From Escherichia coli (GTDB taxonomy: Bacteria > Pseudomonadota > Gammaproteobacteria > Enterobacterales > Enterobacteriaceae): a DNA stretch of 64,000 bases. This document shows positions 1-21,422 of the stretch, in pieces. Under the pieces are notes generated by a model. That model was not told the origin of the DNA and ran no database searches. It saw only the letters and a program-made list of their open reading frames with translations. A program made the position numbers and the translations under genes. The stretch is from NCBI RefSeq assembly GCF_024502345.1, contig NZ_JALDNN010000001.1; one strand, 5' to 3'. Each line of letters starts with the position of its first letter. The first letter of the stretch is position 1.

Positions 1-764
1 GGATGCGGCAAAATACCCATCGGGATGCCATAAATCATTTCGAGGGTTTCGCCGCGCATAATTTCCGCAGGCGTTCCCTGAGCAATCATTTCACCACCGC
101 GCAGGGCGACCAGATAATCACAGTAGCGTGCCGCCATATTGATATCGTGCAGCACGGCAATGACCGTCAGGCCACGTTCCTGACTTAAACGGTGCACCAG
201 CGCCAGCACATCAACCTGGTGGGCGATATCCAGCGCCGAAGTCGGTTCGTCGAGCAACAGACAACGGCTATCCTGCGCCACCAGCATGGCGATCCACGCC
301 CGCTGACGTTCGCCGCCAGAGAGACTATCGACCAGCCGATGCGCCAGCGGTTTTAAGCCAACCAGCGAGATAGCTTCCTCGACCTTTTCGCGATCTGCCG
401 CACCAAAGCGCCCCAGCGCGCCATGCCACGGGTAACGACCAATCGCCACCAGTTCACGCACGGTCATCCCTTCTGCCGGAGGAAGCTGCTGCGGCAAATA
501 AGCCACTTTGCGGGCAAACGCTTTGCTGCTCCAGCTTTCCAGCGGCTGGGCATCAAGAAGAATCTCCCCTTCTGACGGAGGCTGATGACGGCCAAGCATT
601 TTGAGCAGAGTGGATTTACCAGAACCGTTGTGACCAATCAGACCGGTCACTTTCCCGGTAGGAAAGGTTAACGACAGCGGATGCAAAAGCGTGCGCCCGG
701 GCACACGAAAGGAGATATTACGCAGTGCAAAAGTGGTATCGGAATGATTCGTGTATTCCTGCAT
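1..764 (-). CDS. fhuC: Ferrichrome ABC transporter ATPase FhuC (3' end cut by window edge)
   Basis: Minus-strand translation from ATG at 762-764 gives Walker A (GHNGSGKST), ABC signature (LSGGERQRA) and Walker B (LLLDEPTSALD); position next to fhuA matches K-12 synteny. Confidence 0.9.
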   Translation of the reverse strand, partial: MQEYTNHSDTTFALRNISFRVPGRTLLHPLSLTFPTGKVTGLIGHNGSGKSTLLKMLGRHQPPSEGEILLDAQPLESWSSKAFARKVAYLPQQLPPAEGMTVRELVAIGRYPWHGALGRFGAADREKVEEAISLVGLKPLAHRLVDSLSGGERQRAWIAMLVAQDSRCLLLDEPTSALDIAHQVDVLALVHRLSQERGLTVIAVLHDINMAARYCDYLVALRGGEMIAQGTPAEIMRGETLEMIYGIPMGILPH

Positions 765-814
765 AACAGCCAACTTGTGAAATGGGCACGGAAATCCGTG
801 CCCCAAAAGAGAAA

Positions 815-3004
815 TTAGAAACGGAAGGTTGCGGTTGCAACGACCTGACGTTCTGCGCCCCAGAAGCAGCCATAAGTCTGGAAGCAACTGGCAACATACT
901 CACGATCGAGCAAATTGTTGACGTTCACAGCAAGGCTGGATCCCGCCATACCAAAGCGTGCCAGATCATATTTTACAACAGCATCCATTACAGCTGCGCT
1001 ACCCACTTTAAAAGTGTTTGCCGGATCACCATAGCTGGAACCAATAAAACGACCACCTGTTCCCAATGTTAAACCAGAAAGCGGCCCTTCATTGAAGGTA
1101 TAATCCCCCCAGAGAGATGCCATATGCTCCGGTACTTGTTCTGGAGTTTTACCTTTGAGATTGGTGTCTTTGGTGTATTCCGCATCGGTGTAGGTATAAG
1201 AAGCCGTCAAGTTAATATTGGCATTTAACGCCGCTTTTGCTTCAAGTTCCACACCACGAGCGCGAATCTCACCTGCTGGGACTTGCGCTAATGGGTTTGT
1301 TGGGTCTGCTGTCAGGTTATTTGTTTTCGTCAATTGATAGACTGCGCCCGTAACAACGACCGGCATATCATTCGGAACATATTTTACGCCAGCTTCATAC
1401 TGTTCACCTTTCGATGGCTTATAGGAAATGCGCGGGTTGCTCCACAGATCGAAAGCACTCGGTTCAAAGGACTGGCTATAGCTAAAGTAAGGTGAAATAC
1501 CATTATCGAATAAGTAATTTACACCACCGCGCCAGGTGAACTGATGATCATTGCGCTCAATATAACCTTCAGTCGGCGTATAAGAGTTTTCACGAACAGT
1601 GGTCGCTTGCTTAGACCAATCGTAGCGTCCCCCCAGAGTGAATACCCATTTATTCCATTCCGCCTGATCCTGAACATAAATACCTGTTTGTTTGCTTTCA
1701 TTCATCTGGTATGGCTCTGCGCTACCAAATGCAAAGTATTCAGGGTGATATTTGTTATAAAGATCGATGGATGGTGCGGATCCAAAGCTGGCATTGATAT
1801 CATTACGCATCCGCATGAAGTCTACCCCTGTCAGCAAAGTATGCTCGACGTCACCTGTAGCAAACTTACTTTCAAGTTGGGTATCAACGCTAAAGTTTTG
1901 TAGACGCTCATTATCCACCACTGTCCCGCGGTTTAGGGTATGACCATCACCAGCAATCCCTGTGCCATAAACACTTTTCTGTGAGGTTTTCATTTCACTG
2001 AAACGCAGATTCTGACGCACGGTGAAGGTGTCATTAAAACCATGTTCAAAACTATATCCCACCATTTTCTGGTTACGGGAGTATGTATTATTCGATGCAC
2101 CTTCATTGAAGTCAGTCGGTAGACGCTTACCATTAGGCAATGGCTCAACGGTCCCCTCTTTCGGCAACCAACCGTAATAACCCGTTTCTGGTTCATTCTG
2201 GAAATAGGACAGGAAAGTAAAATTGGTTTTGTCGTCTGGACGCCATGAGAATGATGGAGCAATGGTATAACGCTGAGATTCAGAGTTTTTCTGCTGTTCG
2301 TTTGTTGAGCGAGCGAGGCCCGTCAAACGGTAAGAGAACTCACCGTTATCATCCAGTGCATCACTGAAATCGAATCCGGTCTGAAACAGATTATCCGTCC
2401 CCATTTTAAACTGAATTTCTTTCAGGGGTTCAGTGGTCGGACGTTTACTCACCATAGAAATAATCCCACCAGGATTACTTTTTCCATAGAGAACAGACGT
2501 CGGCCCACGCATCAGTTCAACCCTCTCGAGCATGTAAGGATCAATCACAGCATCGTTATAAAAGTTGCCCTGAAGTTTTAGTCCATCAAGGTAATTATTT
2601 TGATTCAGACCAACAGATGAGAAACCACGAATGATAACAAAATCATATGTATTAGAAGCACCACGACTGCTAACCGTAACGCCAGGTGTATAACCTAATG
2701 CTTCTTTTACAGACTGAAATTGATGCATCTGCATCTCTTCATTTGTCACAACCGAAATAGACTGCGGCGTTTTTTCAATTGGTGTATCCGTTTTAGTCGC
2801 AGTAGCAGAGTGCTTCGCCGCAATAGTTGCAGCAGGCCCCCATGCGCTTTCTTGCGGCGCAGGTGCAGCGGTAACGGTGATAGTGTCTTCTTTCGGTTCA
2901 ACCGCTGCCTGTGCATAAACAGACATGCCGCTAACCGCTGTGGCTACTACAACTGCGATTTTACGCAGTGAGTGTTTTGGCTGAGCAGTTTTGGAACGCG
3001 CCAT
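815..3004 (-). CDS. fhuA: TonB-dependent ferrichrome outer membrane receptor FhuA
   Basis: 729-aa ORF with signal peptide (MARSKTAQPKHSLRKIAVVVATAVSGMSVYAQA), TonB-dependent receptor plug and barrel, C-terminal aromatic ending ATFRF; K-12 synteny. Confidence 0.9.
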   Translation of the reverse strand: MARSKTAQPKHSLRKIAVVVATAVSGMSVYAQAAVEPKEDTITVTAAPAPQESAWGPAATIAAKHSATATKTDTPIEKTPQSISVVTNEEMQMHQFQSVKEALGYTPGVTVSSRGASNTYDFVIIRGFSSVGLNQNNYLDGLKLQGNFYNDAVIDPYMLERVELMRGPTSVLYGKSNPGGIISMVSKRPTTEPLKEIQFKMGTDNLFQTGFDFSDALDDNGEFSYRLTGLARSTNEQQKNSESQRYTIAPSFSWRPDDKTNFTFLSYFQNEPETGYYGWLPKEGTVEPLPNGKRLPTDFNEGASNNTYSRNQKMVGYSFEHGFNDTFTVRQNLRFSEMKTSQKSVYGTGIAGDGHTLNRGTVVDNERLQNFSVDTQLESKFATGDVEHTLLTGVDFMRMRNDINASFGSAPSIDLYNKYHPEYFAFGSAEPYQMNESKQTGIYVQDQAEWNKWVFTLGGRYDWSKQATTVRENSYTPTEGYIERNDHQFTWRGGVNYLFDNGISPYFSYSQSFEPSAFDLWSNPRISYKPSKGEQYEAGVKYVPNDMPVVVTGAVYQLTKTNNLTADPTNPLAQVPAGEIRARGVELEAKAALNANINLTASYTYTDAEYTKDTNLKGKTPEQVPEHMASLWGDYTFNEGPLSGLTLGTGGRFIGSSYGDPANTFKVGSAAVMDAVVKYDLARFGMAGSSLAVNVNNLLDREYVASCFQTYGCFWGAERQVVATATFRF

Positions 3005-3042
3005 TGGTATATCTCTGATGTAAAGTGAATGATAACGTAAAC

Positions 3043-3076
3043 GAGAATGATTATTATAAAGATAAGATAATATTCG
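3043..3076 (-). promoter_or_regulatory. Putative Fur box(es) in the fhuA promoter region
   Basis: AT-rich GAGAATGATTATTATAAAGATAAGATAATATTC upstream of fhuA resembles the Fur consensus GATAATGATAATCATTATC (partial match, judged by eye). Confidence 0.4.
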
Positions 3077-3181
3077 AAACGCTGGCGGGTTCGCAAGCGG
3101 TACGCAATCTGAGCGTTCCTGAAGGGTTAATAAACAACCAGATGAAAAGAAAGGGTTAATATCTTAGATGGGATGTTATTT

Positions 3182-3208
3182 TACCGGATGGCAACTCGCC
3201 ATCCGGTA
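3182..3208 (-). terminator. Stem-loop downstream of mrcB (likely intrinsic terminator)
   Basis: Inverted repeat TACCGGATGGC ... GCCATCCGGTA just after the mrcB stop. Confidence 0.5.
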
Positions 3209-3223
3209 TTTCACGCTTAGATG

Positions 3224-5758
3224 TTAATTACTACCAAACATATCCTTGATCCAACCGGCTACACCGTCTCTGTCTTTCTGCTCTTGCTGAGCAGGTTGCT
3301 GTTGCGGCTGTTGCTGCGGCTGAGAAGACTGATCAAACGGATTGCCTGACGGCTGCTGCTGCATCTCACTCTGCTGGCACAGCGATTGCGGATCGCTGGT
3401 CCAGACCGGCAAGACACGCATGCCACCGCTGCAAACAAAGTTGCCGTCGTAGTCCACGCCCATATCTGCAATATCTTCTGGCGGAACAAGATTCAGCGGC
3501 GTTGGCGTCTGGTTAGCCAGATAACGCTGATAAATCGACATTGCCCCGCTGGCTCCATACAGTTTGGTCGGCTGGTTGTTATCACGGCCTACCCAGGTGA
3601 TGGTCACCGTGCTGCCGTCAATGCCTGCAAACCAGGTATCTACGTTATTGTTGGTAGTCCCTGTTTTCCCTGCCAGATGCAGGTTCGGGTATTTCGCCCC
3701 AAGCTGACGACCCGTACCACGTTGTACCACCTGCTGCATGGTCCATAGTGTCAGATACGCCGCCTGCGCCGGAACAGCGCGTTCTGCCTGCGGGAAGCTC
3801 TGATACAGCACCTTGCCATCTTCCGCGATTACCGAACGCAGTGCAGAAAGCGGTGCACGGTTACCACCGCTGGCGATGGTCTGGAACGCCTGCGCCACTT
3901 CGATTGGCGTTAAGTTCAACGCCCCCAGCAGCATCGCCGGAACCGGATGCAGCTGATCTTTCGGTACGCCCAGTTTGATCCAGGTATCCGTAACTGCAGG
4001 CAGCCCCAGCGCCATCCCCAGATTTACCGTCGGCACGTTCATCGAACGGGTCAACGCATCCACCAGCATCACTCTGCCGCTTTCGCTATAACGACGGTCA
4101 TCGTTCTGCGGTGACCAGACCTGGCCATTCGGCTGACGCAGCGCGATTGGCGCATCGGCAATCCACGTGTTCAGGCGATAGATTTTCGGCTGGCTTAAAG
4201 CCGTCAGATAAGTCGCTGGTTTTGCAAGGGAACCAATCGAACGACGCGCCTGCATCGCACGGTTGTAGCCCGCAAACTGCGGCTCAGAACCTCCGACCAT
4301 CGCACGAACTTCACCACTAAAGCGGTCGACGACCACAATCGCAGTTTCAAGATCGCTCAACTTACGCTGTTTCTTCAGTGCCGGAATGCCTTCCACGGCG
4401 GCTTTTTCTGCCGCGTCCTGGGCCACCGAGTCAAAGGTAGTGAAGATCTTCACGCCGGAGAGATCTTTTACCTTATCGCCCAGTTTTGCCTGCAGCTCCT
4501 GACGCACCAGTTGCATAAAGGCTGGCTGAGGAGAGATCACCCCACCGCGCGGCTGAACCCCCAGCGGACGGGCACTCAACATGTCATAGAGTTCTTGATC
4601 AATAATCTGTTGCTGTTGCAGCAGACGCAGCACCAGATTACGTCGCTCCAGCGCCAGTTTTGGGTTACGCCACGGGTTGTAGATGGACGCCCCTTTCACC
4701 ATACCGACTAACAGCGCCTGCTGGTCGAGGCTTAGCTCTTCTACCGGGCGACCAAAGTAATACAAGCTTGCCAGCGGGAAGCCGCGGATTTCGTTGTCGC
4801 CGCTCTGACCGAGATACACCTCGTTCATATACAGCTCAAGAATACGGTCTTTGCTGTAACGCGCGTCCATGATCAGCGCCATGTAAGCTTCGTTCGCTTT
4901 ACGCCAGTAAGAACGCTCGCTGGAGAGGAACAGGTTTTTCACCAGCTGTTGCGTCAGCGTACTCGCACCCTGTACCGTGCGACCTGCGGTCAGGTTTGCC
5001 AGCACCGCACGTCCGATGGAGTAGAGGCTGATGCCGTCATGCTCGTAAAAATGACGGTCTTCTGTCGCCAGCAAAGTATCCACCAGCAAATCCGGGAAAC
5101 CACTGCGCGGCACAAACAGACGCTGCTCACCGTTTGGCGAAGAGATCATGGTGATCAGACGCGGATCAAGACGGAAAAAGCCGAACTGACGGTTGTTCTC
5201 CATATTGACGATCGTCGCCAGATGATCACCATCAAAGGTCAGACGCGCACGCACCTGCCCTTCTTTACTGTCCGGGAAATCAAACGGACGGCGGATCATC
5301 TCAATGCTGTTGGCCTGCACGGTAAATTCGCCAGGACGGGTCATTTTCGACACCTGGCGATACTGGGTCGCCTCCAGCAGCTTCACCATCTCGTTCTTGC
5401 TGATGGTCATGTCTGGCTCAAGGTTGACCATTCGGCCATAAACTGCCGCAGGCAGTTGCCAGACCTTGCCATCAATACGGCTACGAATTTTTTGATCGAG
5501 ATAAACGCCGTAAATGGCGATCAGCACGGCAAAAACGATAGCCAGTTTTAACAGCAGCCATAGCCAGCCGCGTTTGCCACGAGGCTTACGCCCTTTGCCT
5601 TTGCCCTTACCTTTGCGCGGCATCGGTTCTTCATCCTCATAGTCATCATAATCGTCGTAATCATCGTCATCTTCGTAACGACGACGGCTTACCTTTTGTT
5701 TGACCGGACGCGTCGGTTTCCCTTTGCGTCCAATTGGCTCGCGGTCATTCCCGGCCAT
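3224..5758 (-). CDS. mrcB: Penicillin-binding protein 1B (bifunctional glycosyltransferase/transpeptidase)
   Basis: Translation matches PBP1b: acidic [16 protein letters not shown]-terminal region, transmembrane helix, transglycosylase and transpeptidase regions ([13 protein letters not shown]). Start taken at MAGNDREP, inside the longer listed ORF. Confidence 0.9.
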
Positions 5759-11361: not shown

Positions 11362-12759
11362 ATTTTTACCCGAGTCGCTAATTTTTGCCGCAAGGTGCTA
11401 AGCCGCGAGGAAAGCGAGGCTGAACAGGCAGTCGCCCGTCCACAGGTGACGGTGATCCCGCGTGAGCAGCATGCTATTTCCCGCAAAGATATCAGTGAAA
11501 ATGCCCTGAAGGTAATGTACAGGCTCAACAAAGCGGGATACGAAGCCTGGCTGGTTGGCGGCGGCGTGCGCGACCTGTTACTTGGCAAAAAGCCGAAAGA
11601 TTTTGACGTAACCACTAACGCCACGCCTGAGCAGGTGCGCAAACTGTTCCGTAACTGCCGCCTGGTGGGTCGCCGTTTCCGTCTGGCTCATGTAATGTTT
11701 GGCCCGGAGATTATCGAAGTTGCGACCTTCCGTGGACACCACGAAGGTAACGTCAGCGACCGCACGACCTCCCAACGCGGGCAAAACGGCATGTTGCTGC
11801 GCGACAACATTTTCGGCTCCATCGAAGAAGACGCCCAGCGCCGCGATTTCACTATCAACAGCCTCTATTACAGCGTAGCGGATTTTACCGTCCGTGATTA
11901 CGTTGGCGGTATGAAGGATCTGAAGGACGGCGTTATCCGTCTGATTGGTAACCCGGAAACGCGCTACCGTGAAGATCCGGTACGTATGCTGCGCGCGGTA
12001 CGTTTTGCCGCCAAATTGGGTATGCGCATCAGCCCGGAAACCGCAGAACCGATCCCTCGCCTCGCTACCCTGTTGAACGATATCCCACCGGCACGCCTGT
12101 TTGAAGAATCGCTTAAACTGCTACAAGCGGGCTACGGTTACGATACCTATAAGCTGTTGTGTGAATATCATCTGTTCCAGCCGCTGTTCCCGACCATTAC
12201 CCGCTACTTCACGGAAAATGGCGACAGCCCGATGGAGCGGATCATTGAACAGGTGCTGAAGAATACCGATACGCGTATCCATAACGATATGCGCGTGAAC
12301 CCGGCGTTCCTGTTTGCCGCCATGTTCTGGTACCCACTGCTGGAGACGGCACAGAAGATTGCCCAGGAAAGCGGCCTGACCTATCACGACGCTTTCGCGC
12401 TGGCGATGAACGACGTGCTGGACGAAGCCTGCCGTTCACTGGCAATCCCGAAACGTCTGACGACGTTAACCCGCGATATCTGGCAGTTGCAGTTGCGTAT
12501 GTCCCGTCGTCAGGGTAAACGCGCATGGAAACTGCTGGAGCATCCTAAGTTCCGTGCGGCTTATGACCTGTTGGCCTTGCGAGCTGAAGTTGAACGTAAC
12601 GCTGAACTGCAGCGTCTGGTGAAATGGTGGGGTGAGTTCCAGGTTTCCGCGCCACCAGATCAAAAAGGGATGCTTAACGAGTTGGATGAAGAGCCGTCAC
12701 CGCGTCGCCGTACTCGTCGTCCACGCAAACGCGCACCGCGTCGTGAGGGTACCGCATGA
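11362..12759 (+). CDS. pcnB: Poly(A) polymerase I
   Basis: Nucleotidyltransferase motif ([10 protein letters not shown]...DFD), basic C-terminal tail; start assigned to the ATT codon at 11362 (recalled non-AUG start of K-12 pcnB); an in-frame TTG lies at 11341. Confidence 0.85.
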
Positions 12760-13238
12760 CAGTTGCGTATATTGCCATAGGCAGCAATCTGGCCTCTCCG
12801 CTGGAGCAGGTCAATGCTGCCCTGAAAGCATTAGGCGATATCCCTGAAAGCCACATTCTTACCGTTTCTTCGTTTTACCGCACCCCACCGCTGGGGCCGC
12901 AAGATCAACCCGATTACTTAAACGCAGCCGTGGCGCTGGAAACAACACTTGCGCCTGAAGAATTACTTAATCACACACAGCAAATAGAGTTGCAGCAAGG
13001 TCGCGTTCGTAAAGCAGAACGCTGGGGACCGCGCATACTCGATCTTGATATCATGTTGTTTGGTAATGAAACCATTAATACCGAACGACTCACCGTCCCG
13101 CATTACGATATGAAGAATCGCGGCTTTATGCTGTGGCCGCTGTTTGAGATTGCCCCGGAACTCGTGTTTCCTGATGGGGAGACATTACGTGAAATACTCA
13201 CTTCGCTAGCAGTACTACAACCTGCCATCTGGTATTAG
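12756..13238 (+). CDS. folK: 6-hydroxymethyl-7,8-dihydropterin pyrophosphokinase
   Basis: HPPK-like sequence; ATG overlaps the pcnB stop (ATGA), as in K-12. Confidence 0.9.
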
Positions 13239-13519
13239 CTGTATTATTTTATTTTCTTATCTTACTCCTCACTTCCCCTCTTACAGATTAAATATACTTA
13301 ATTTACATTTTAGTTTTTTTTAATTAATTCATGAAATAGCACTTCATGCAAATAGATTAGGCATTTTTTGTTTAAAAAACCTAGAATAACAACAATTCAA
13401 TACACCACGTAAATATATTCACACAAGTGATACCTCTCCCCCTATTACATCCTTCCCCGACTTTAAGTAATATCCGCTCGCAATATTAATTTCGTATAAT
13501 TTTTGTAAGGATGCATGTA

Positions 13520-14116
13520 ATGAAAAAAGCACTTCTCGCAGCCGCTTTAGTAATGGCTTCTGGTTCCGCCTTGGCTGTAGATGGTGGTCATATCGACTTT
13601 AACGGTATGGTACAGTCCGGTACCTGTAAAGTGGGTGTGGTAGATACCGGTATGCACAGCGTTACCACTGATGGCGTGGTTACCCTGGATACTGCGAATG
13701 TTACTGATACTTTTACTGAAGTAAGTGCAACTGCTGTTGGTTTACTGCCGAAAGAGTTCATGATTTCTGTTGAGTGTGATCCAGGTGCTCCGAAGAATGC
13801 TGAGTTGACTATGGGTTCTGCAAGCTACGCGAACACCAGCGGTACCCTGAATAACAATATGAACATCACTGTTAACGGTATTGCACCGGCTCAGAACGTG
13901 AACATTGCAGTTCATAACATGAAAAACAAAGCTGGCGCTGCTGAAATTAAGCAGGTCCATATGAACAACTCTTCTGAAGTTCAGGAACTGACATTAGACG
14001 CAGAAGGTAAAGGTCAGTACGTGTTTAACGCATCTTACGTTAAAGCACCGAACAGCCCGGCTGTTACTGCTGGTCATGTAACCACTAACGCACTGTACAC
14101 CATTGCTTATAAATAA
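13520..14116 (+). CDS. yadN: Fimbrial major subunit (chaperone-usher pilin)
   Basis: Signal peptide, conserved Cys pair, C-terminal pilin strand (TIAYK); first gene of the yad operon. Confidence 0.8.
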   Translation: MKKALLAAALVMASGSALAVDGGHIDFNGMVQSGTCKVGVVDTGMHSVTTDGVVTLDTANVTDTFTEVSATAVGLLPKEFMISVECDPGAPKNAELTMGSASYANTSGTLNNNMNITVNGIAPAQNVNIAVHNMKNKAGAAEIKQVHMNNSSEVQELTLDAEGKGQYVFNASYVKAPNSPAVTAGHVTTNALYTIAYK

Positions 14117-14196: not shown

Positions 14197-14928
14197 GTGC
14201 TTATGTTTCCCTTGGTTAAAAAAACGGTTAGTGCATTATTTGTAAGTACTCTGTTAGCCAGTGCGCCTGCATTCGCTGACATTATTATTTCCGGAACTCG
14301 TATCATTTATAACGCTGATAAAAAAGATGTTAACGTTCGTCTGGAAAATAAAGGGAATCGCCCCTTACTGATTCAGAACTGGTTGGATACTGGCGACGAC
14401 AATGCCGATCCCAGCCAGATCAAAGTGCCATTTACCTCTACGCCGCCTGTTTCACGCGTTGAGCCAAAACGCGGTCAAACCGTAAAAGTGATGTACACCG
14501 GTGCAACAGCCCTGCCTAAAGACCGGGAAAGTGTCTACTGGTTTAACGTGCTGGAAGTGCCGCCTAAGCCGAAAGATGCTGAGTCTGACAAAAACTTATT
14601 ACAATTGGCTTTCCGCACACGCATCAAACTCTTTTATCGCCCGAGCGGTTTACAGGGAGAACCGGCTGAAGCACCGGCGAAAATCACCTGGAAATTAAAC
14701 AACGCTCAGTTACAGGCAAATAACCCAACGCCATATTACGTGTCCTTTAATGAGGTCAAGCTGGAAAGTGGCGGCAAAACCTACAACGTCAATTCCAGCA
14801 TGGTCGCGCCGTTCAGCCAGGCAAGCTTTCGCGTAACCGGTCTACCAGGAAGCGTTTCATCCGGGAAAGTGATCTTTAAAGCGATCAACGACTTTGGCGG
14901 CAACATCGATGGTTCCGCAACATTGTAA
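14197..14928 (+). CDS. yadV: Periplasmic fimbrial chaperone (PapD-like)
   Basis: PapD-family features: signal peptide and conserved segments (RIIYNAD, VYWFNVLEVPP). Confidence 0.85.
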   Translation: MLMFPLVKKTVSALFVSTLLASAPAFADIIISGTRIIYNADKKDVNVRLENKGNRPLLIQNWLDTGDDNADPSQIKVPFTSTPPVSRVEPKRGQTVKVMYTGATALPKDRESVYWFNVLEVPPKPKDAESDKNLLQLAFRTRIKLFYRPSGLQGEPAEAPAKITWKLNNAQLQANNPTPYYVSFNEVKLESGGKTYNVNSSMVAPFSQASFRVTGLPGSVSSGKVIFKAINDFGGNIDGSATL

Positions 14929-14969: not shown

Positions 14970-17570
14970 TTGTACCAGTTTACTCATCAAATAAGCCGTA
15001 TCCCGAAAAAAACGCTACTTGCGGCCTGTTGTGCCCTGTTTTATAGCAGCAACGGTGCTGCGGCAGACACGGTGGAATATGACAGTTCCTTCTTAATGGG
15101 AACTGGCGCATCAACGATTGATGTTAAACGTTATGCTCAAGGCAACCCGACACCCCCGGGCCTCTATAATGTCCGCGTGTTTGTAAACGGTCAGGCGACG
15201 TCCAGCTTAGAAATTCCGTTTGTGGATATTGGCGAAGCCAGCGCAGCGGCCTGTATTACCCACAAAAACCTGGCGCAACTCCACATAAAGCAACCTGAAC
15301 AGCCTGTCACTTTACTCGCCAGAGAAGGTGAAGAAGAGGATTGTCTGGATTTGGCAAAGTCATACGAAAAGGCGGATGTGCGCTTTGACGGCAGTGACCA
15401 GTTTCTCGATCTGACTATTCCTCAGGCCTATGTTCTGAAAAACTACGGTGGTTATGTCGACCCCTCACTGTGGGAGTCAGGGATTAACGCTGCCACACTG
15501 GCATATACCCTGAACGCCTATCATACAAGTTCAAATAACGACAATAGTGACAGCGCCTATGGCGCATTTAACTCAGGTATCAATTTAGGAGCCTGGCACT
15601 TCCGTGCGCGCGGTAACTATAACTGGACAACAGATAACGGCAGCGATTTCGATTTCCAGGATCGTTACTTACAGCGTGACATTCCGGCAATCCGTTCACA
15701 GATAATTATGGGTGATGCCTATACCACCGGTGAAACATTTGACTCTGTCAACGTCCGCGGCGTTCGCCTGTACAGCGATAGCCGTATGCTGCCTTCGGCG
15801 CTGGCCAGTTACGCTCCGACCATCCGCGGTGTAGCAAACTCCAACGCCAAAGTCACCGTGACGCAAAGCGGTTATAAAATCTATGAAACCACCGTACCAC
15901 CCGGTGAATTTGTTATAGACGACATTAGCCCCTCCGGCTTTGGTAGCGAACTGGTCGTGACCATTGAAGAAGCGGATGGTTCCAAACGCACCTTTACGCA
16001 ACCCTTCTCGTCGGTTGTACAAATGCAACGTCCTGGTGTGGGCCGTTGGGATTTCAGCGCGGGTAAAGTCATTGATGACAGTCTGCGATCCGAACCCAAT
16101 ATGGGACAAGCCTCTTATTACTATGGTCTGAATAACCTCTTCACGGGTTATACCGGTATTCAGTTCACCGATAATAACTATCTTGCCGGGCTGTTAGGTG
16201 TGGGTATCAACACCAGCATCGGTGCCTTTGCGGTAGACGTTACCCATTCCCGTGCTGAAATTCCGGATGATAAAACCTACCAGGGGCAAAGTTATCGCGT
16301 GACCTGGAACAAATTATTCCAGGATACCGGGACATCATTTAACCTCGCGGCGTACCGCTATTCCACCCAAGATTACCTGGGCCTGCATGATGCGTTAGTC
16401 CTCATTGACGACGCCAAACATTTGTCTGCCGATGAAGACAAAAACACCATGCAGACGTACTCACGTATGAAAAACCAGTTTACCGTCAGCATCAACCAGC
16501 CGCTGAAAACGACTTACGAAGATTACGGTTCACTGTTTATTTCTGGTAGCTGGACGGATTACTGGGCGGCGAACAATAGCCGCACTGAATATAATGTTGG
16601 TTACAGTAAAAGCGTTTCGTGGGGCAGTTTCAGCGTCAACCTGCAACGTAGCTGGAATGAAGACGGCGAGAAAGATGACGCGATGTACGTCAGCGTTAGC
16701 GTACCTATTGAGAATATTTTAGGTGGCAAACGTAAGTCTTCTGGTTTCCGCAATTTAAATACTCAGCTCAATACCGATTTCGATGGTTCACATCAGTTGA
16801 ATGTTAACAGTTCCGGTAACACTGAAAACAATCTGGTGAACTACAGTGTCAACGCAGGTTATAGCCTCGATAAAAACTCCGGCGATTTAGCCTCTGTTGG
16901 TGGTTATCTCAACTATGAATCAGGGTTAGGCGGTATTTCCGCTTCGGCCTCGGCCACTTCGGATAACAGCCAACAGTACTCCATCTCCACCGATGGAGGC
17001 TTTGTATTACACAGTGGTGGTTTAACGTTCACTAACAACAGTTTCAGCAGTAACGACACGCTGGTGTTAATCAACGCCCCAGGTGCTAAAGGCGCACGAA
17101 TCAATAACAGTAATAACGAAATCGATCGCTGGGGATATGCCGTGACGTCCTCTGTCAGCCCCTACCGTGAAAACCGGGTAGGTCTGAACATTGAAACACT
17201 GGAAAACGATGTTGAACTGAAAAGTACCAGCGCCACCACCGTACCACGTAGCGGCTCCGTTGTTTTGACCCGGTTCGAAACTGACGAGGGGCGTTCTGTC
17301 GTGCTGAATATTACTGCCGCCAATGGCAAATCTATTCCGTTTGCTGCGGAGGTTTACCAGGATGACGTGATGATCGGCAGCATGGGCCAGGGTGGTCAGG
17401 CATTTGTGCGCGGTATTAACGACAGCGGGGAATTAATCGTGCGTTGGTATGAAAACAACCAAACCATTGACTGTAAGTTGCACTACCAGTTCCCGGCCCA
17501 GCCACAAACGCTGGGAAGTACCAACACCTTATTACTTAATAATCTTACCTGTCAGGTAGCAAATCACTAA
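14970..17570 (+). CDS. htrE: Fimbrial outer membrane usher
   Basis: 866-aa usher-like protein with signal peptide; sits between chaperone and minor pilins. Confidence 0.85.
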   Translation: MYQFTHQISRIPKKTLLAACCALFYSSNGAAADTVEYDSSFLMGTGASTIDVKRYAQGNPTPPGLYNVRVFVNGQATSSLEIPFVDIGEASAAACITHKNLAQLHIKQPEQPVTLLAREGEEEDCLDLAKSYEKADVRFDGSDQFLDLTIPQAYVLKNYGGYVDPSLWESGINAATLAYTLNAYHTSSNNDNSDSAYGAFNSGINLGAWHFRARGNYNWTTDNGSDFDFQDRYLQRDIPAIRSQIIMGDAYTTGETFDSVNVRGVRLYSDSRMLPSALASYAPTIRGVANSNAKVTVTQSGYKIYETTVPPGEFVIDDISPSGFGSELVVTIEEADGSKRTFTQPFSSVVQMQRPGVGRWDFSAGKVIDDSLRSEPNMGQASYYYGLNNLFTGYTGIQFTDNNYLAGLLGVGINTSIGAFAVDVTHSRAEIPDDKTYQGQSYRVTWNKLFQDTGTSFNLAAYRYSTQDYLGLHDALVLIDDAKHLSADEDKNTMQTYSRMKNQFTVSINQPLKTTYEDYGSLFISGSWTDYWAANNSRTEYNVGYSKSVSWGSFSVNLQRSWNEDGEKDDAMYVSVSVPIENILGGKRKSSGFRNLNTQLNTDFDGSHQLNVNSSGNTENNLVNYSVNAGYSLDKNSGDLASVGGYLNYESGLGGISASASATSDNSQQYSISTDGGFVLHSGGLTFTNNSFSSNDTLVLINAPGAKGARINNSNNEIDRWGYAVTSSVSPYRENRVGLNIETLENDVELKSTSATTVPRSGSVVLTRFETDEGRSVVLNITAANGKSIPFAAEVYQDDVMIGSMGQGGQAFVRGINDSGELIVRWYENNQTIDCKLHYQFPAQPQTLGSTNTLLLNNLTCQVANH

Positions 17571-17571
17571 T

Positions 17572-18132
17572 ATGGAAAATTCTATGAAAAGGATACTACT
17601 AACATCCGCGTTAATAGGCCTGGGTTTACCGGCGGTTGGCTCTGCAACAGATCTTAATGTCGATTTTACGGCCACCGTATTAGCCACCACCTGCACGATA
17701 ACTATCGTACAAGATGGTGGCCCAGTAGTGACGGGTAGTAACGGTGAATATAGCCTGACAATTCCCGATGTTGGCCTGGATAAAGTTATAACTGGAGATG
17801 TTGCAGCTCAAGCCAACTTTAAATTACTGGCTTCCGATTGCAGCAATGGTTACTCAAAGATTTTTACCACACTTACAGGTGCATCTGTTTCAGGTAAGTT
17901 GATTGTCAATGAAGCAAGCTCTGGCGCTACTGGTGTGGGTATGGGGATTAAGCGTAGAGATACCGCAGACTCAACTTTCTTTACACCCAATAATACTGAC
18001 AAATTTGAATGGACCACCGATGAGAAAGCTAACGGTGTGCCTCTAACCGTAGCACTGCGCGAAACAACGGCGGGAGCAGGACGCACCGGTGCGTTTCAGG
18101 CAAAAGCCACCTTTAACTTCACCTACGAATAA
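17572..18132 (+). CDS. yadM: Fimbrial minor subunit
   Basis: Pilin-like: signal peptide, Cys pair, C-terminal beta strand (FNFTYE). Confidence 0.75.
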   Translation: MENSMKRILLTSALIGLGLPAVGSATDLNVDFTATVLATTCTITIVQDGGPVVTGSNGEYSLTIPDVGLDKVITGDVAAQANFKLLASDCSNGYSKIFTTLTGASVSGKLIVNEASSGATGVGMGIKRRDTADSTFFTPNNTDKFEWTTDEKANGVPLTVALRETTAGAGRTGAFQAKATFNFTYE

Positions 18133-18146
18133 CAGGGACAGCCACC

Positions 18147-18758
18147 ATGAAATTAAAAGTCATCGCTACACTGATTGCCACTGTTGCCGTGGGTGCCAGC
18201 GTTAGCAACAATCTCGCTTATGCGGGTACGACATCCGCCTCTTTAACCGTAAACAGTAACCTGACTATGGGTACCTGTAGTGCGAAGATACTGGATACCA
18301 GTGATACCGTGACCGATACCGTTGCCTTTAACAATGTTTATATTTCTGAACTGGCAGCCAAAAGCAAGGTACAACCATTTAAAATCCGTTTCAGCGATTG
18401 CGCCGGTCTTCCAGGAAAAAGTGCTCAACTCGTATTGGCACCCAAAGGTATCGGTTGCGCTGGCGGCATGTCTAACACTGCCGGCTTTGCAAATAAACTT
18501 AACTCCACCACCGAAGGTGGTTCAAGCGGAGCAGCTGTCGAAGTATGGACGACTACGACCCCCGGGGGAAGTGGCAGTAAGCAATTCAGTTGCATTCAGC
18601 GAAACGTCGTCAATGTCGATCTTTCTAATGCCAGCACAACACAGCCTTATGATTTCGATTTAAGCGCGCGGATGATTCTCGCTGAAGGGAGAACGGTTAA
18701 TGATGCATTACCGGGTAGTTTCCTCTCTCCTACGACTTTCACAATCACTTATCAGTAA
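18147..18758 (+). CDS. yadL: Fimbrial minor subunit
   Basis: Pilin-like: signal peptide, C-terminal TFTITYQ. Confidence 0.75.
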   Translation: MKLKVIATLIATVAVGASVSNNLAYAGTTSASLTVNSNLTMGTCSAKILDTSDTVTDTVAFNNVYISELAAKSKVQPFKIRFSDCAGLPGKSAQLVLAPKGIGCAGGMSNTAGFANKLNSTTEGGSSGAAVEVWTTTTPGGSGSKQFSCIQRNVVNVDLSNASTTQPYDFDLSARMILAEGRTVNDALPGSFLSPTTFTITYQ

Positions 18759-18778: not shown

Positions 18779-19369
18779 ATGCTATGCAGGCATCATAAAT
18801 TTGTACGCTTTTTGGGGCTGGTAACAGCCCTCGTTACGCCTTTTGCCTATGCTGGCCAGGATGTGAATCTCACCGCGCAGATTGTGGCCAGTACCTGTCA
18901 GGTTGAAGTCAGTAATAATGGCGTTGTCGATCTCGGCACAGTGACGCTGGACTATTTTGCTGACAATGTGACCCCGACAACGGATTATGCGGGTGGCAAA
19001 ACGTTTAATGTTAATGTGGTCTCTTGCGATAACATTCAAACGACACAGTCGCAAATGAAATTAGATTTTCAGCCGCAGGCGGGATCGCTTGCGCAGGTGA
19101 ATAATCAAATTTTTAGTAATGAATATGAACAGCAGGCTACCGGGGCGAAAAACGTCGGCATTGTGATATTTTCGGCCCAGCCGAATCAGCAGACATTTAA
19201 CGTGCGAGGAACGGATGGTTCCTCAACAGCAATTTATTCGGTCGCGCCTGGCAACGCTGCTCCCTCAACCTGGACCTTTTATTCCCGTATGCAACGGGTG
19301 AATAATGCCCTTCCTCCTGAATCGGGAATGGTGAGAAGCCAGGTTATTGTTAATGTATCTTATGAATAA
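18779..19369 (+). CDS. yadK: Fimbrial minor subunit
   Basis: Pilin-like: signal peptide, C-terminal VIVNVSYE. Confidence 0.75.
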   Translation: MLCRHHKFVRFLGLVTALVTPFAYAGQDVNLTAQIVASTCQVEVSNNGVVDLGTVTLDYFADNVTPTTDYAGGKTFNVNVVSCDNIQTTQSQMKLDFQPQAGSLAQVNNQIFSNEYEQQATGAKNVGIVIFSAQPNQQTFNVRGTDGSSTAIYSVAPGNAAPSTWTFYSRMQRVNNALPPESGMVRSQVIVNVSYE

Positions 19370-19380
19370 TAAGGATAATT

Positions 19381-20493
19381 ATGCAAAGGAAAGGCAATAA
19401 ACTGTTAATTCAGTTATGCAGTGCGATACTGCTATTTTTTACCACATCCTGGTATGCATTGGCGACTGAATGTTATATAGAGAGCAATGCTGCAGGGGCT
19501 TATGATATTGTTATAAACCCAACTCCCTTCAGTATACAGTCAGCGATGGTCACAGTCCCGGAGGAAATATCTTTCGCGGCCTCGGATGTTCATATTGACC
19601 TTCGAGGGGATAAGATTGGCTGTAAATCCTTAGGTAGTAACACAAGCGCGGTACATTTTCTTAATACTGCTGATGCCAGTAACATATCTACCTACACTGA
19701 CAGTCACGGTAATGGTTTATTGAAAACAACCGTTACGGGTATTGTTTATTCAGTAGAATTACAATGTAGAAATTGTGGAGCCGCGGAGGATCTTAGTTTG
19801 ATGCTTCCAGCACAAAGCGGTGGAGATAATCATACAAGCAACTCTGATACAAAGTGGGCCTATGAGTATAGTGACGATAGCTGGTATTTACGATTTCGTT
19901 TTTTCTGGACCCCGGAATATAAACCCCAAAATGGGGTTTCAGAAGGATTTGCGATACCAGGTAAAATAGCCTCCTGGTATATAGGCAATGAGAATCAACC
20001 ATGGATAAATTTTTTCGTTGATACAAGCTCCCTGCATTTTTACGTGGAGGAACCCACCTGTCAAACAGTTGCCCTGGCACAAGATCAGGGTAATGTCAGC
20101 GGCAACCAGGTAACGCTTGGGAACAACTATGTTTCGGAAGTGAAAAATGGGCTTACGCGGGAAATTCCTTTTGCCATCCGCGCTGAATACTGTTATGCCA
20201 GTAAGATTACGGTTAAGTTGAAAGCGGCAAATAAGCCCAGCGACGCCACTCTGGTAGGTAAAACAACGGGCTCTGCTTCAGGCGTGGCTGTAAAAGTGCA
20301 TTCAACTTACGAAGACAGCAAAGTATTGTTAAAAGCAGATGGTAGCAACACGGTTGACTACAACTTCGCAATCTGGTCAAACAACCTGCTGAATTTGCCC
20401 TTTACGGCACAGTTGGTACCGGATGGCAGTGGTAATGCAGTCGGTGTTGGAACATTTTCAGGAAACGCGACCTTCTCCTTTACCTACGAATAA
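19381..20493 (+). CDS. yadC: Fimbrial tip adhesin (two-domain adhesin-pilin)
   Basis: 370 aa with signal peptide and C-terminal pilin domain ending FSFTYE; last gene of the yad operon. Confidence 0.75.
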   Translation: MQRKGNKLLIQLCSAILLFFTTSWYALATECYIESNAAGAYDIVINPTPFSIQSAMVTVPEEISFAASDVHIDLRGDKIGCKSLGSNTSAVHFLNTADASNISTYTDSHGNGLLKTTVTGIVYSVELQCRNCGAAEDLSLMLPAQSGGDNHTSNSDTKWAYEYSDDSWYLRFRFFWTPEYKPQNGVSEGFAIPGKIASWYIGNENQPWINFFVDTSSLHFYVEEPTCQTVALAQDQGNVSGNQVTLGNNYVSEVKNGLTREIPFAIRAEYCYASKITVKLKAANKPSDATLVGKTTGSASGVAVKVHSTYEDSKVLLKADGSNTVDYNFAIWSNNLLNLPFTAQLVPDGSGNAVGVGTFSGNATFSFTYE

Positions 20494-20627: not shown

Positions 20628-21422
20628 ATGAAACCGACCACTATTGCTTCACTACAGAAATATAAGCAGGAAAAAAAACGCTTCGCCACCATCACCGCCT
20701 ATGACTACAGCTTCGCCAAACTGTTTGCTGATGAAGGGCTGAATGTGATGCTGGTGGGCGACTCGCTGGGCATGACGGTTCAGGGGCACGACTCCACCCT
20801 GCCAGTTACCGTTGCTGATATCGCCTACCACACTGCCGCCGTACGTCGCGGCGCACCAAACTGCCTGTTGTTGGCTGACCTGCCGTTTATGGCGTATGCC
20901 ACGCCGGAACAAGCCTTTGAAAACGCCGCAACGGTTATGCGTGCCGGTGCTAACATGGTCAAAATTGAAGGCGGTGAGTGGCTGGTCGAAACCGTAAAAA
21001 TGTTGACCGAACGTGCCGTTCCTGTATGTGGTCACTTAGGTTTAACCCCACAGTCAGTGAATATTTTCGGTGGCTACAAAGTTCAGGGGCGCGGCGATGA
21101 AGCGAGCGATCGACTGCTTAGCGATGCATTAGCCTTAGAAGCCGCTGGTGCACAGTTGCTGGTGCTGGAGTGCGTGCCGGTTGAACTGGCAAAACGTATT
21201 ACCGAAGCACTGGCGATCCCGGTGATTGGCATTGGCGCAGGTAACGTCACCGACGGACAAATTCTTGTGATGCATGACGCCTTTGGTATTACAGGCGGTC
21301 ACATCCCTAAATTTGCCAAAAATTTCCTCGCAGAAACGGGCGACATCCGCGCGGCGGTGCGGCAGTATATGGCTGAAGTGGAGTCCGGCGTTTACCCGGG
21401 CGAAGAACACAGTTTCCATTAA
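20628..21422 (+). CDS. panB: 3-methyl-2-oxobutanoate hydroxymethyltransferase
   Basis: 264-aa PanB-like translation; K-12 synteny with panC. Confidence 0.9.

Follow-up and report, generated by a model that had tools for sequence, protein, structure and literature searches.

The yad locus and its genes

The DNA analysed here, referred to as the window, is a 64-kb stretch of the Escherichia coli genome with the gene order mrcB-hrpB-thpR-sfsA-dksA-gluQ-pcnB-folK, followed by seven fimbrial genes and by panB-panC. Attention was given to the region between folK, which ends with the stop codon TAG (13236-13238), and the first fimbrial gene, a likely yadN homologue. ATG at position 13520 is the most plausible start codon of this gene, since AAGGA (13507-13511) is located 8 nt upstream, a signal peptide (MKKALLAAALVMASGSALA) is encoded downstream, and this start is also the one annotated in RefSeq for a 99.8%-identical strain. 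With the folK stop ending at 13238 and the fimbrial ATG at 13520, positions 13239-13519 are thus the exact intergenic gap. The genes and the gap are:

12756-13238 (+): folK, the co-directional gene upstream of the leader, by open reading frame and annotation
13239-13519 (+): folK-yadN intergenic region of 281 bp, regulatory region and putative leader
13520-14116 (+): major subunit, YadN-like, 40% identical to YadN of K-12 MG1655 and 74% to the Escherichia whittamii homologue
14203-14928 (+): periplasmic chaperone, YadV/EcpD equivalog, 61% identical to YadV of MG1655
14970-17570 (+): outer-membrane usher, HtrE equivalog, 60% identical to HtrE of MG1655 and 69% to E. whittamii
17584-18132, 18147-18758 and 18779-19369 (+): three minor subunits in the YadM, YadL and YadK positions
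19381-20493 (+): tip adhesin in the YadC position, 370 aa, two-domain
20628-21422 (+): panB, the conserved flank on the right of the locus

In Pfam and NCBIfam the seven open reading frames matched fimbrial subunits, a PapD-type chaperone and an usher. The usher matched NF007337 (HtrE) over its full length with 1564 bits at a cut-off of 830, as well as the Pfam families Usher, PapC_N and PapC_C; the chaperone scored 419.6 bits with NF007398 (YadV/EcpD, cut-off 285) and matched PapD_N and PapD_C. In NCBIfam the major subunit matched StaA best, with a score of 158 bits, below the equivalog cut-off of 230. The position between folK and panB and the order major subunit, chaperone, usher and four further subunits agreed with K-12 and with the RefSeq annotation. 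All open reading frames had the lengths of non-pseudogene RefSeq models. The 281 bp are the AT-rich region upstream of an intact seven-gene chaperone-usher operon at the yad locus, which extends from folK to panB, and the statement of an earlier note on this DNA that the seven-gene operon is intact was confirmed. Strain A30 has an otherwise similar allele with a yadN-like gene annotated as pseudogene due to an internal stop, hence the operon is not intact in all carriers.

Allele type and distribution

The yad locus 2 of O157:H7 (Z0146-Z0152 / ECs0139-ECs0145) belongs to the same allele lineage as the window operon and shares its gene order and flanks. Over 601 bp covering folK, leader and yadN the two are 96.7% identical, and over all 281 bp of the leader 95%; the differences are about 10 substitutions clustered at 13425-13461, a few others, and the last folK codons. 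The yad fimbriae of O157:H7 have been visualised and are functional. The leader is 100% identical in strain 88-3493, and the 601 bp are 99.7% identical in an O169:H41 ETEC. Leader identity decreased to 89% in O145 and to about 71% in strain A29, and E. whittamii and Escherichia sp. E1V33 proved to share the leader lineage when species-representative genomes were scanned for its pattern. Among 5,426 complete E. coli genomes, 448 carried this leader type and 3,101 the K-12-type leader.

The K-12 operon yadN-yadV(ecpD)-htrE-yadMLKC occupies the same locus with the same seven-gene architecture, has usher and chaperone of the same NCBIfam equivalogs, and is also preceded by a low-GC leader. It is H-NS-silenced and cryptic, and differs in proteins of only 26-61% identity, with the lowest value for YadC, of which the C-terminal pilin domain is the only aligning part, and in a leader of 369 bp instead of 281 bp. 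Comparison of the window leader with the K-12 and CFT073 leaders revealed no meaningful homology; they are unalignable, and the CFT073 leader groups with K-12, away from the window leader. By sequence comparison, the operon is assigned to an O157:H7-type allele of Yad (a gamma-4 chaperone-usher system) at the ancestral folK-panB locus, and not to the K-12/ExPEC allele. Genomes have been scored Yad-positive at 80% or more identity and coverage to HtrE-EC958, and phylogroup E was thereby Yad-negative (PMC13245861). Phylogroup E carries the O157-type yad allele. The window usher probably falls short of this threshold, as judged from K-12 HtrE (60% identity), with which the comparison was made; the window operon would thus represent a divergent Yad sub-type. 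This is a useful correction: the allele is of the O157:H7 type, and its regulatory DNA has no alignable counterpart in the promoters of K-12 and ExPEC used in all H-NS work. Neither conclusions on Yad regulation nor surveys at 80% usher identity transfer automatically to phylogroup E-like strains.

Composition and elements of the leader

The leader consists of 110 T, 90 A, 57 C and 24 G, a GC content of 28.6-28.8% compared to 50.6% for the whole window, and values this low were present in 0.06% of the 281-bp tiles of the window. The earlier note had described about 280 bp of strongly AT-rich DNA with A/T tracts before yadN; these are precisely the 281-bp gap with 28.8% GC and the tracts T8 (13314-13321), T6 (13364), A6 (13374) and T5 (13500), to which three T4 tracts and eight A/T-only runs of 8-16 bp are added. 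TpA steps have a density of 0.129 in the leader and 0.048 in the window, a 2.7-fold difference. Each of the five leaders that were compared (window, K-12 with 26.9%, CFT073 with 26%, strain A29 and E. whittamii) had a GC content of 23-29%. Since the low GC content persists across two unalignable leader lineages, the composition itself seems to be maintained; the comparison suggests that AT-richness as such is kept while the leader sequence is not. The following elements were recognized:

13239-13285 (+): pyrimidine-rich stretch directly 3' of the folK stop, without hairpin terminator
13287-13332: densest A/T block with the T8 tract and the TTAATTAATT palindrome, three 8/10 matches to the H-NS motif TCGWTWAATT
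13358-13387 (+): sigma-70 consensus-like site TAGGCA-18-TAGAAT, 9/12 matches, the sole such site found
13364-13379: T6/A6 pair, a palindromic tract and the one place in the leader with a predicted peak of curvature (41.8 degrees, top 0.7% of positions)
13380-13457 (+): stretch rich in C and poor in G (26 C, 4 G), the C at regular spacing, rut-like
13410-13450 (+): blocks conserved in seven alleles, namely TAAATATATTCA (13410-13421), GTGATA (13428-13433) and TATTACAT (13443-13450)
13464-13489: conserved inverted-repeat element AGTAATATCCGCTCGCAATATTA of about 25 bp, arms TAATAT / ATATTA with a GC core, candidate regulator site
13492-13501 (+): TCGTATAATT, 9/10 match to the H-NS high-affinity motif
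13500-13522 (+): invariant TTTTTGTAAGGA..CATGTAATG with the Shine-Dalgarno sequence AAGGA (13507-13511) and the start codon (13520-13522)

An alignment of seven alleles identified the promoter-proximal part of about 120 bp as the best-conserved part of the leader. Within it, a patch at about 13425-13461, in which the window differs from O157, A30 and O145, is flanked and interrupted by the conserved blocks. The inverted repeat AGTAATATCCGCTCGCAATATTA, which precedes the start codon by about 30-55 bp, has kept its arms in the approximately 70%-identical allele of strain A29, with an altered spacer. The sigma-70-like site at 13358-13387 is weak and absent from distant alleles, and TCGTATAATT includes a perfect TATAAT (13495-13500) with a poor -35 element, conserved in the close family only. 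Promoter-like sites were not enriched over shuffled sequences in the consensus scan, with one weak site against 2.1 expected. The distal leader of A30, O145 and E1V33 has an extra 61 bp at about 13253 between direct repeats of TTATTTTCTT; the window and O157:H7 lack this segment. At permissive E-values, an Rfam scan of 12900-13800 returned a single chance match to a snoRNA with 17 bits at a gathering threshold of 55, and the predicted fold of the leader RNA was no better than that of shuffled sequences (z = +0.59). On both results a structured leader or riboswitch was rejected. Small open reading frames of 20-39 codons in the leader were rejected as genes, as they are not maintained between the window and O157.

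Probable silencing by H-NS

Repression by H-NS has been published for the yad operons of K-12, CFT073 and EC958. The K-12 yadN gene is listed in three genome-wide H-NS data sets, and over-production of SlyA raises yadN 2.4-fold (PMC5797941). The best direct evidence for H-NS control comes from Pyad of the ExPEC strains CFT073 and EC958, an AT-rich leader at the same locus: expression of Pyad-lux increased more than 100-fold in delta-hns and was complemented, ChIP-seq revealed binding of H-NS, and the promoter was induced by serum and in vivo (PMC13245861). The earlier note had described the AT-rich leader as typical of H-NS-silenced operons. Such silencing is well founded for the published alleles, but the window contains a divergent one. 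As the proteins are 26-61% identical and the leader is unalignable, we infer H-NS control of the window leader from its composition, not from homology. The argument gains strength from the low GC content kept by all five leader versions. H-NS has been mapped by ChIP-chip in O157 Sakai; a search of the literature yielded no H-NS results on the yad allele of the O157 type.

The leader had 4.4 times the density of sites resembling the H-NS motif (TCGATAAATT-like) that the window has overall, a value that equals the expectation from AT-richness alone. Its sites comprise one 9/10 match, which overlaps TATAAT (13492-13501), and three 8/10 matches. The earlier note had named a prediction of DNA curvature as a check. 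In a wedge-model calculation, the leader did not stand out by its mean curvature, located at the 66th percentile, and had one local peak at about 13372.

Our preferred reading, to which we assign a probability of about 0.7, takes the 281 bp as promoter and leader of an intact Yad operon of the O157:H7 type that is silenced by H-NS, with a secondary, putative layer of Rho-dependent termination. It starts from what is seen in the DNA, namely the composition and anatomy of the leader, the intact genes, the allele identity, and the kept AT-richness and proximal blocks. From these we infer the binding of H-NS to the window allele, the position of the promoter and the involvement of Rho. The leader most likely is a landing pad for H-NS, as it is in other versions of the operon. 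Its AT-rich and TpA-rich DNA would nucleate H-NS, together with StpA/Hha, and the protein would spread from the leader across the promoter into the moderately AT-rich operon, thus keeping transcription low. Expression of yad would rise once H-NS is displaced or counteracted, either by SlyA/LeuO-type antagonists or through signals from host and environment, among them ethanolamine, acid and serum.

In this form the leader of the window is an ordinary feature, already known in kind. Upstream DNA that is AT-rich and targeted by H-NS is to be expected of a chaperone-usher operon with conditional expression, and for Yad such a case has been published before. The fimbrial operons yeh, elf/ycb, sfm, mat/ecp and pef of Salmonella likewise combine AT-rich upstream DNA, low laboratory expression and hns/SlyA/LeuO derepression, but reside at different loci and have no sequence relationship to the window leader.

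Possible Rho-dependent termination in the leader

A terminator scan detected no hairpin terminator after folK. The sense strand of the leader is C-rich and G-poor (57 C, 24 G). Segments of 78 nt starting at about 13253-13255 (16 C, 2 G) and at 13380 surpassed all others of the 64 kb, on either strand, in their C/G ratio, and 13380-13457 ranked first. In this the leader resembles a rut site, a C-rich, G-poor, unstructured RNA of about 80 nt without intrinsic terminator. A loose rut criterion is unspecific, since 52% of the strand falls under it, and the extreme C/G ratio is the one feature that is conspicuous. The sense strand held more C than G in each of the five leader versions, with a weaker ratio of about 1.5 in K-12 and CFT073. 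The lack of an intrinsic terminator, the extreme bias of C over G and the lack of a predicted RNA structure suggest termination or attenuation by Rho. Within 13253-13457, Rho would probably end the transcripts that read through from pcnB-folK or that start in the distal leader. Filaments of H-NS promote Rho-dependent termination, and in the leader they would assist it.

The same observations allow a different emphasis, in which the leader is mainly a Rho-dependent terminator or insulator that ends the pcnB-folK transcript and attenuates transcripts bound for yadN, with AT-richness as a secondary property. The missing hairpin after folK, the top-ranked 13380-13457 stretch with its regularly spaced C, the excess of C over G in every leader version and the unstructured RNA all speak for this possibility. 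Yet it is a prediction from composition alone, C makes up a low share of the first stretch in absolute terms (about 20%), the patch richest in C belongs in part to the sub-allele of the window only, and the C/G ratio of the K-12 and CFT073 leaders is modest. As the main function of the leader we regard it as doubtful, though it is compatible with, and partly contained in, the preferred reading of an H-NS-silenced promoter and leader. An additional role of the leader as Rho/H-NS insulator downstream of folK, if true, would add a further case to a known cooperation.

Conditional expression of the O157-type operon

In EHEC, the O157:H7 yad operon is expressed from its native promoters and belongs to the highest-expressed fimbrial loci with ethanolamine (PMC11287998); it is also induced by acid (PMC7098969). 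As this 95%-identical operon is detectably expressed, the silencing of yad, if present, would have to be incomplete or dependent on conditions. The earlier note had proposed that the operon could be expressed under derepressing conditions. Native-promoter expression and the induction by ethanolamine and acid in EHEC mark the O157-type Yad as conditionally expressed and not simply cryptic.

Expression of a near-identical locus from its native promoters, high with ethanolamine and induced by acid, could also point to an ordinary regulated promoter without appreciable H-NS silencing. Specific regulators, e.g., of ethanolamine or acid pathways, would then act at the conserved proximal element, and AT-richness would be a by-product of promoter or UP-element-like sequence. 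The inverted repeat at 13464-13489 and other blocks have survived about 30% divergence, and the unremarkable mean curvature is in line with such a promoter. Against it, all yad alleles tested so far are strongly repressed by H-NS, and typical E. coli promoters have a GC content far higher than the 29% of these 281 bp, the most extreme value of the window. Furthermore, specific regulators usually coexist with H-NS silencing in the form of anti-silencing. An ordinary promoter is therefore unlikely in our view.

Origin of the locus and proposed exchange of cassettes

The earlier note had regarded the operon as horizontally derived, which simplifies too much. Yad has been classed among the core-associated loci, in synteny with Sta of Salmonella (PMC3559732). 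The GC content of the yad operon, 47%, is only modestly lower than the 50-56% of its neighbours, and allelic replacement at an ancient locus fits better than the recent insertion of an island. The Sta operon (staA-G) is, by the literature, the syntenic counterpart of Yad in the same usher clade (PMC3559732). The last 15 or so codons of folK (about 13190-13238) vary between the window, O157:H7, A29 and K-12, and the remainder of folK, an essential gene, is conserved. As the variation is confined to these codons, a boundary of the variable yad cassette lies inside the folK coding sequence. Judged from these alignments, the yad locus holds at least two old, diverged cassettes with one boundary in the last ~15 codons of folK.

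A more specific model combines the exchange of whole cassettes with a leader that is a composite silencer, in which a nucleation region for H-NS is coupled to a Rho-loading stretch (13253-13457) that shields the fimbrial genes from pcnB-folK read-through, and 13464-13489 is the operator for an allele-specific anti-silencer. We consider this combination speculative and rather improbable as a whole. In this model, the non-homologous leaders of the two cassettes independently keep 25-29% GC, approximately, and more C than G on the sense strand. If the model were true, an anti-silencer at 13464-13489 could explain why the O157-type operon responds to ethanolamine and acid and the K-12-type to low temperature and anaerobiosis.

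The cassette boundary within folK near its 3' end, a leader that differs between strains by indels and patches of mosaic sequence, and the mobile elements inserted in the leader of other strains might also be expected of neutral junction DNA that was left by allelic replacement, its AT-richness reflecting the donor composition or relaxed selection. Conservation is, however, clearly higher in the proximal 120 bp than in the distal leader, and this extends to E. whittamii and A29; the non-homologous leaders keep their low GC content. The operon also needs a promoter within the 281 bp unless it depends wholly on read-through from folK. We rate neutral junction DNA as very improbable.

A phase-variation switch, either a fimS-like invertible promoter or a pap-like Dam/Lrp methylation switch, was rejected: despite many short inverted repeats of A/T in the leader, these are A/T-only and imperfect, GATC sites are absent from the leader, neither a recombinase gene nor a regulator gene of the PapI/PapB type adjoins the operon, the orientation is the same in all seven aligned alleles, and Yad has been reported not to be phase-variable (PMC13245861).

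Mobile elements and further observations

The leaders of several strains are interrupted. In strains 118 and 132 a Mu-like prophage, recognizable by genes for Mu transposase and helix-turn-helix proteins, interrupts the middle of the leader at its position 182 (about 13420) and splits folK from the fimbrial operon. Strain H9Ecoli has an IS1A insertion from leader position 59 (about 13297) and has lost nearly the entire operon, the 3' end of the adhesin gene being the only remnant before panB. In the closest reference strain, FDAARGOS_944, a lambdoid prophage downstream of acnB carries a gene for an ipaH-type effector of type III secretion, which adjoins a truncated DUF3300 gene.

The leader is one of three AT-rich troughs within the 64 kb. 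The two others, with about 29% GC, are at 48148-51216 and 52279-53421 between pdhR and aroP, in an accessory island of type VI secretion with tssD/hcp and three tandem genes annotated as 'bacteriocin immunity protein'. Motif hits in this trough region at 49102, 49799 and 50497 have a repeat period of about 698 bp. The second-strongest C-rich and G-poor stretch of the window is located at 22718-22806 (+), antisense to rpnC, with about 36 C and 8-9 G per 78 nt.
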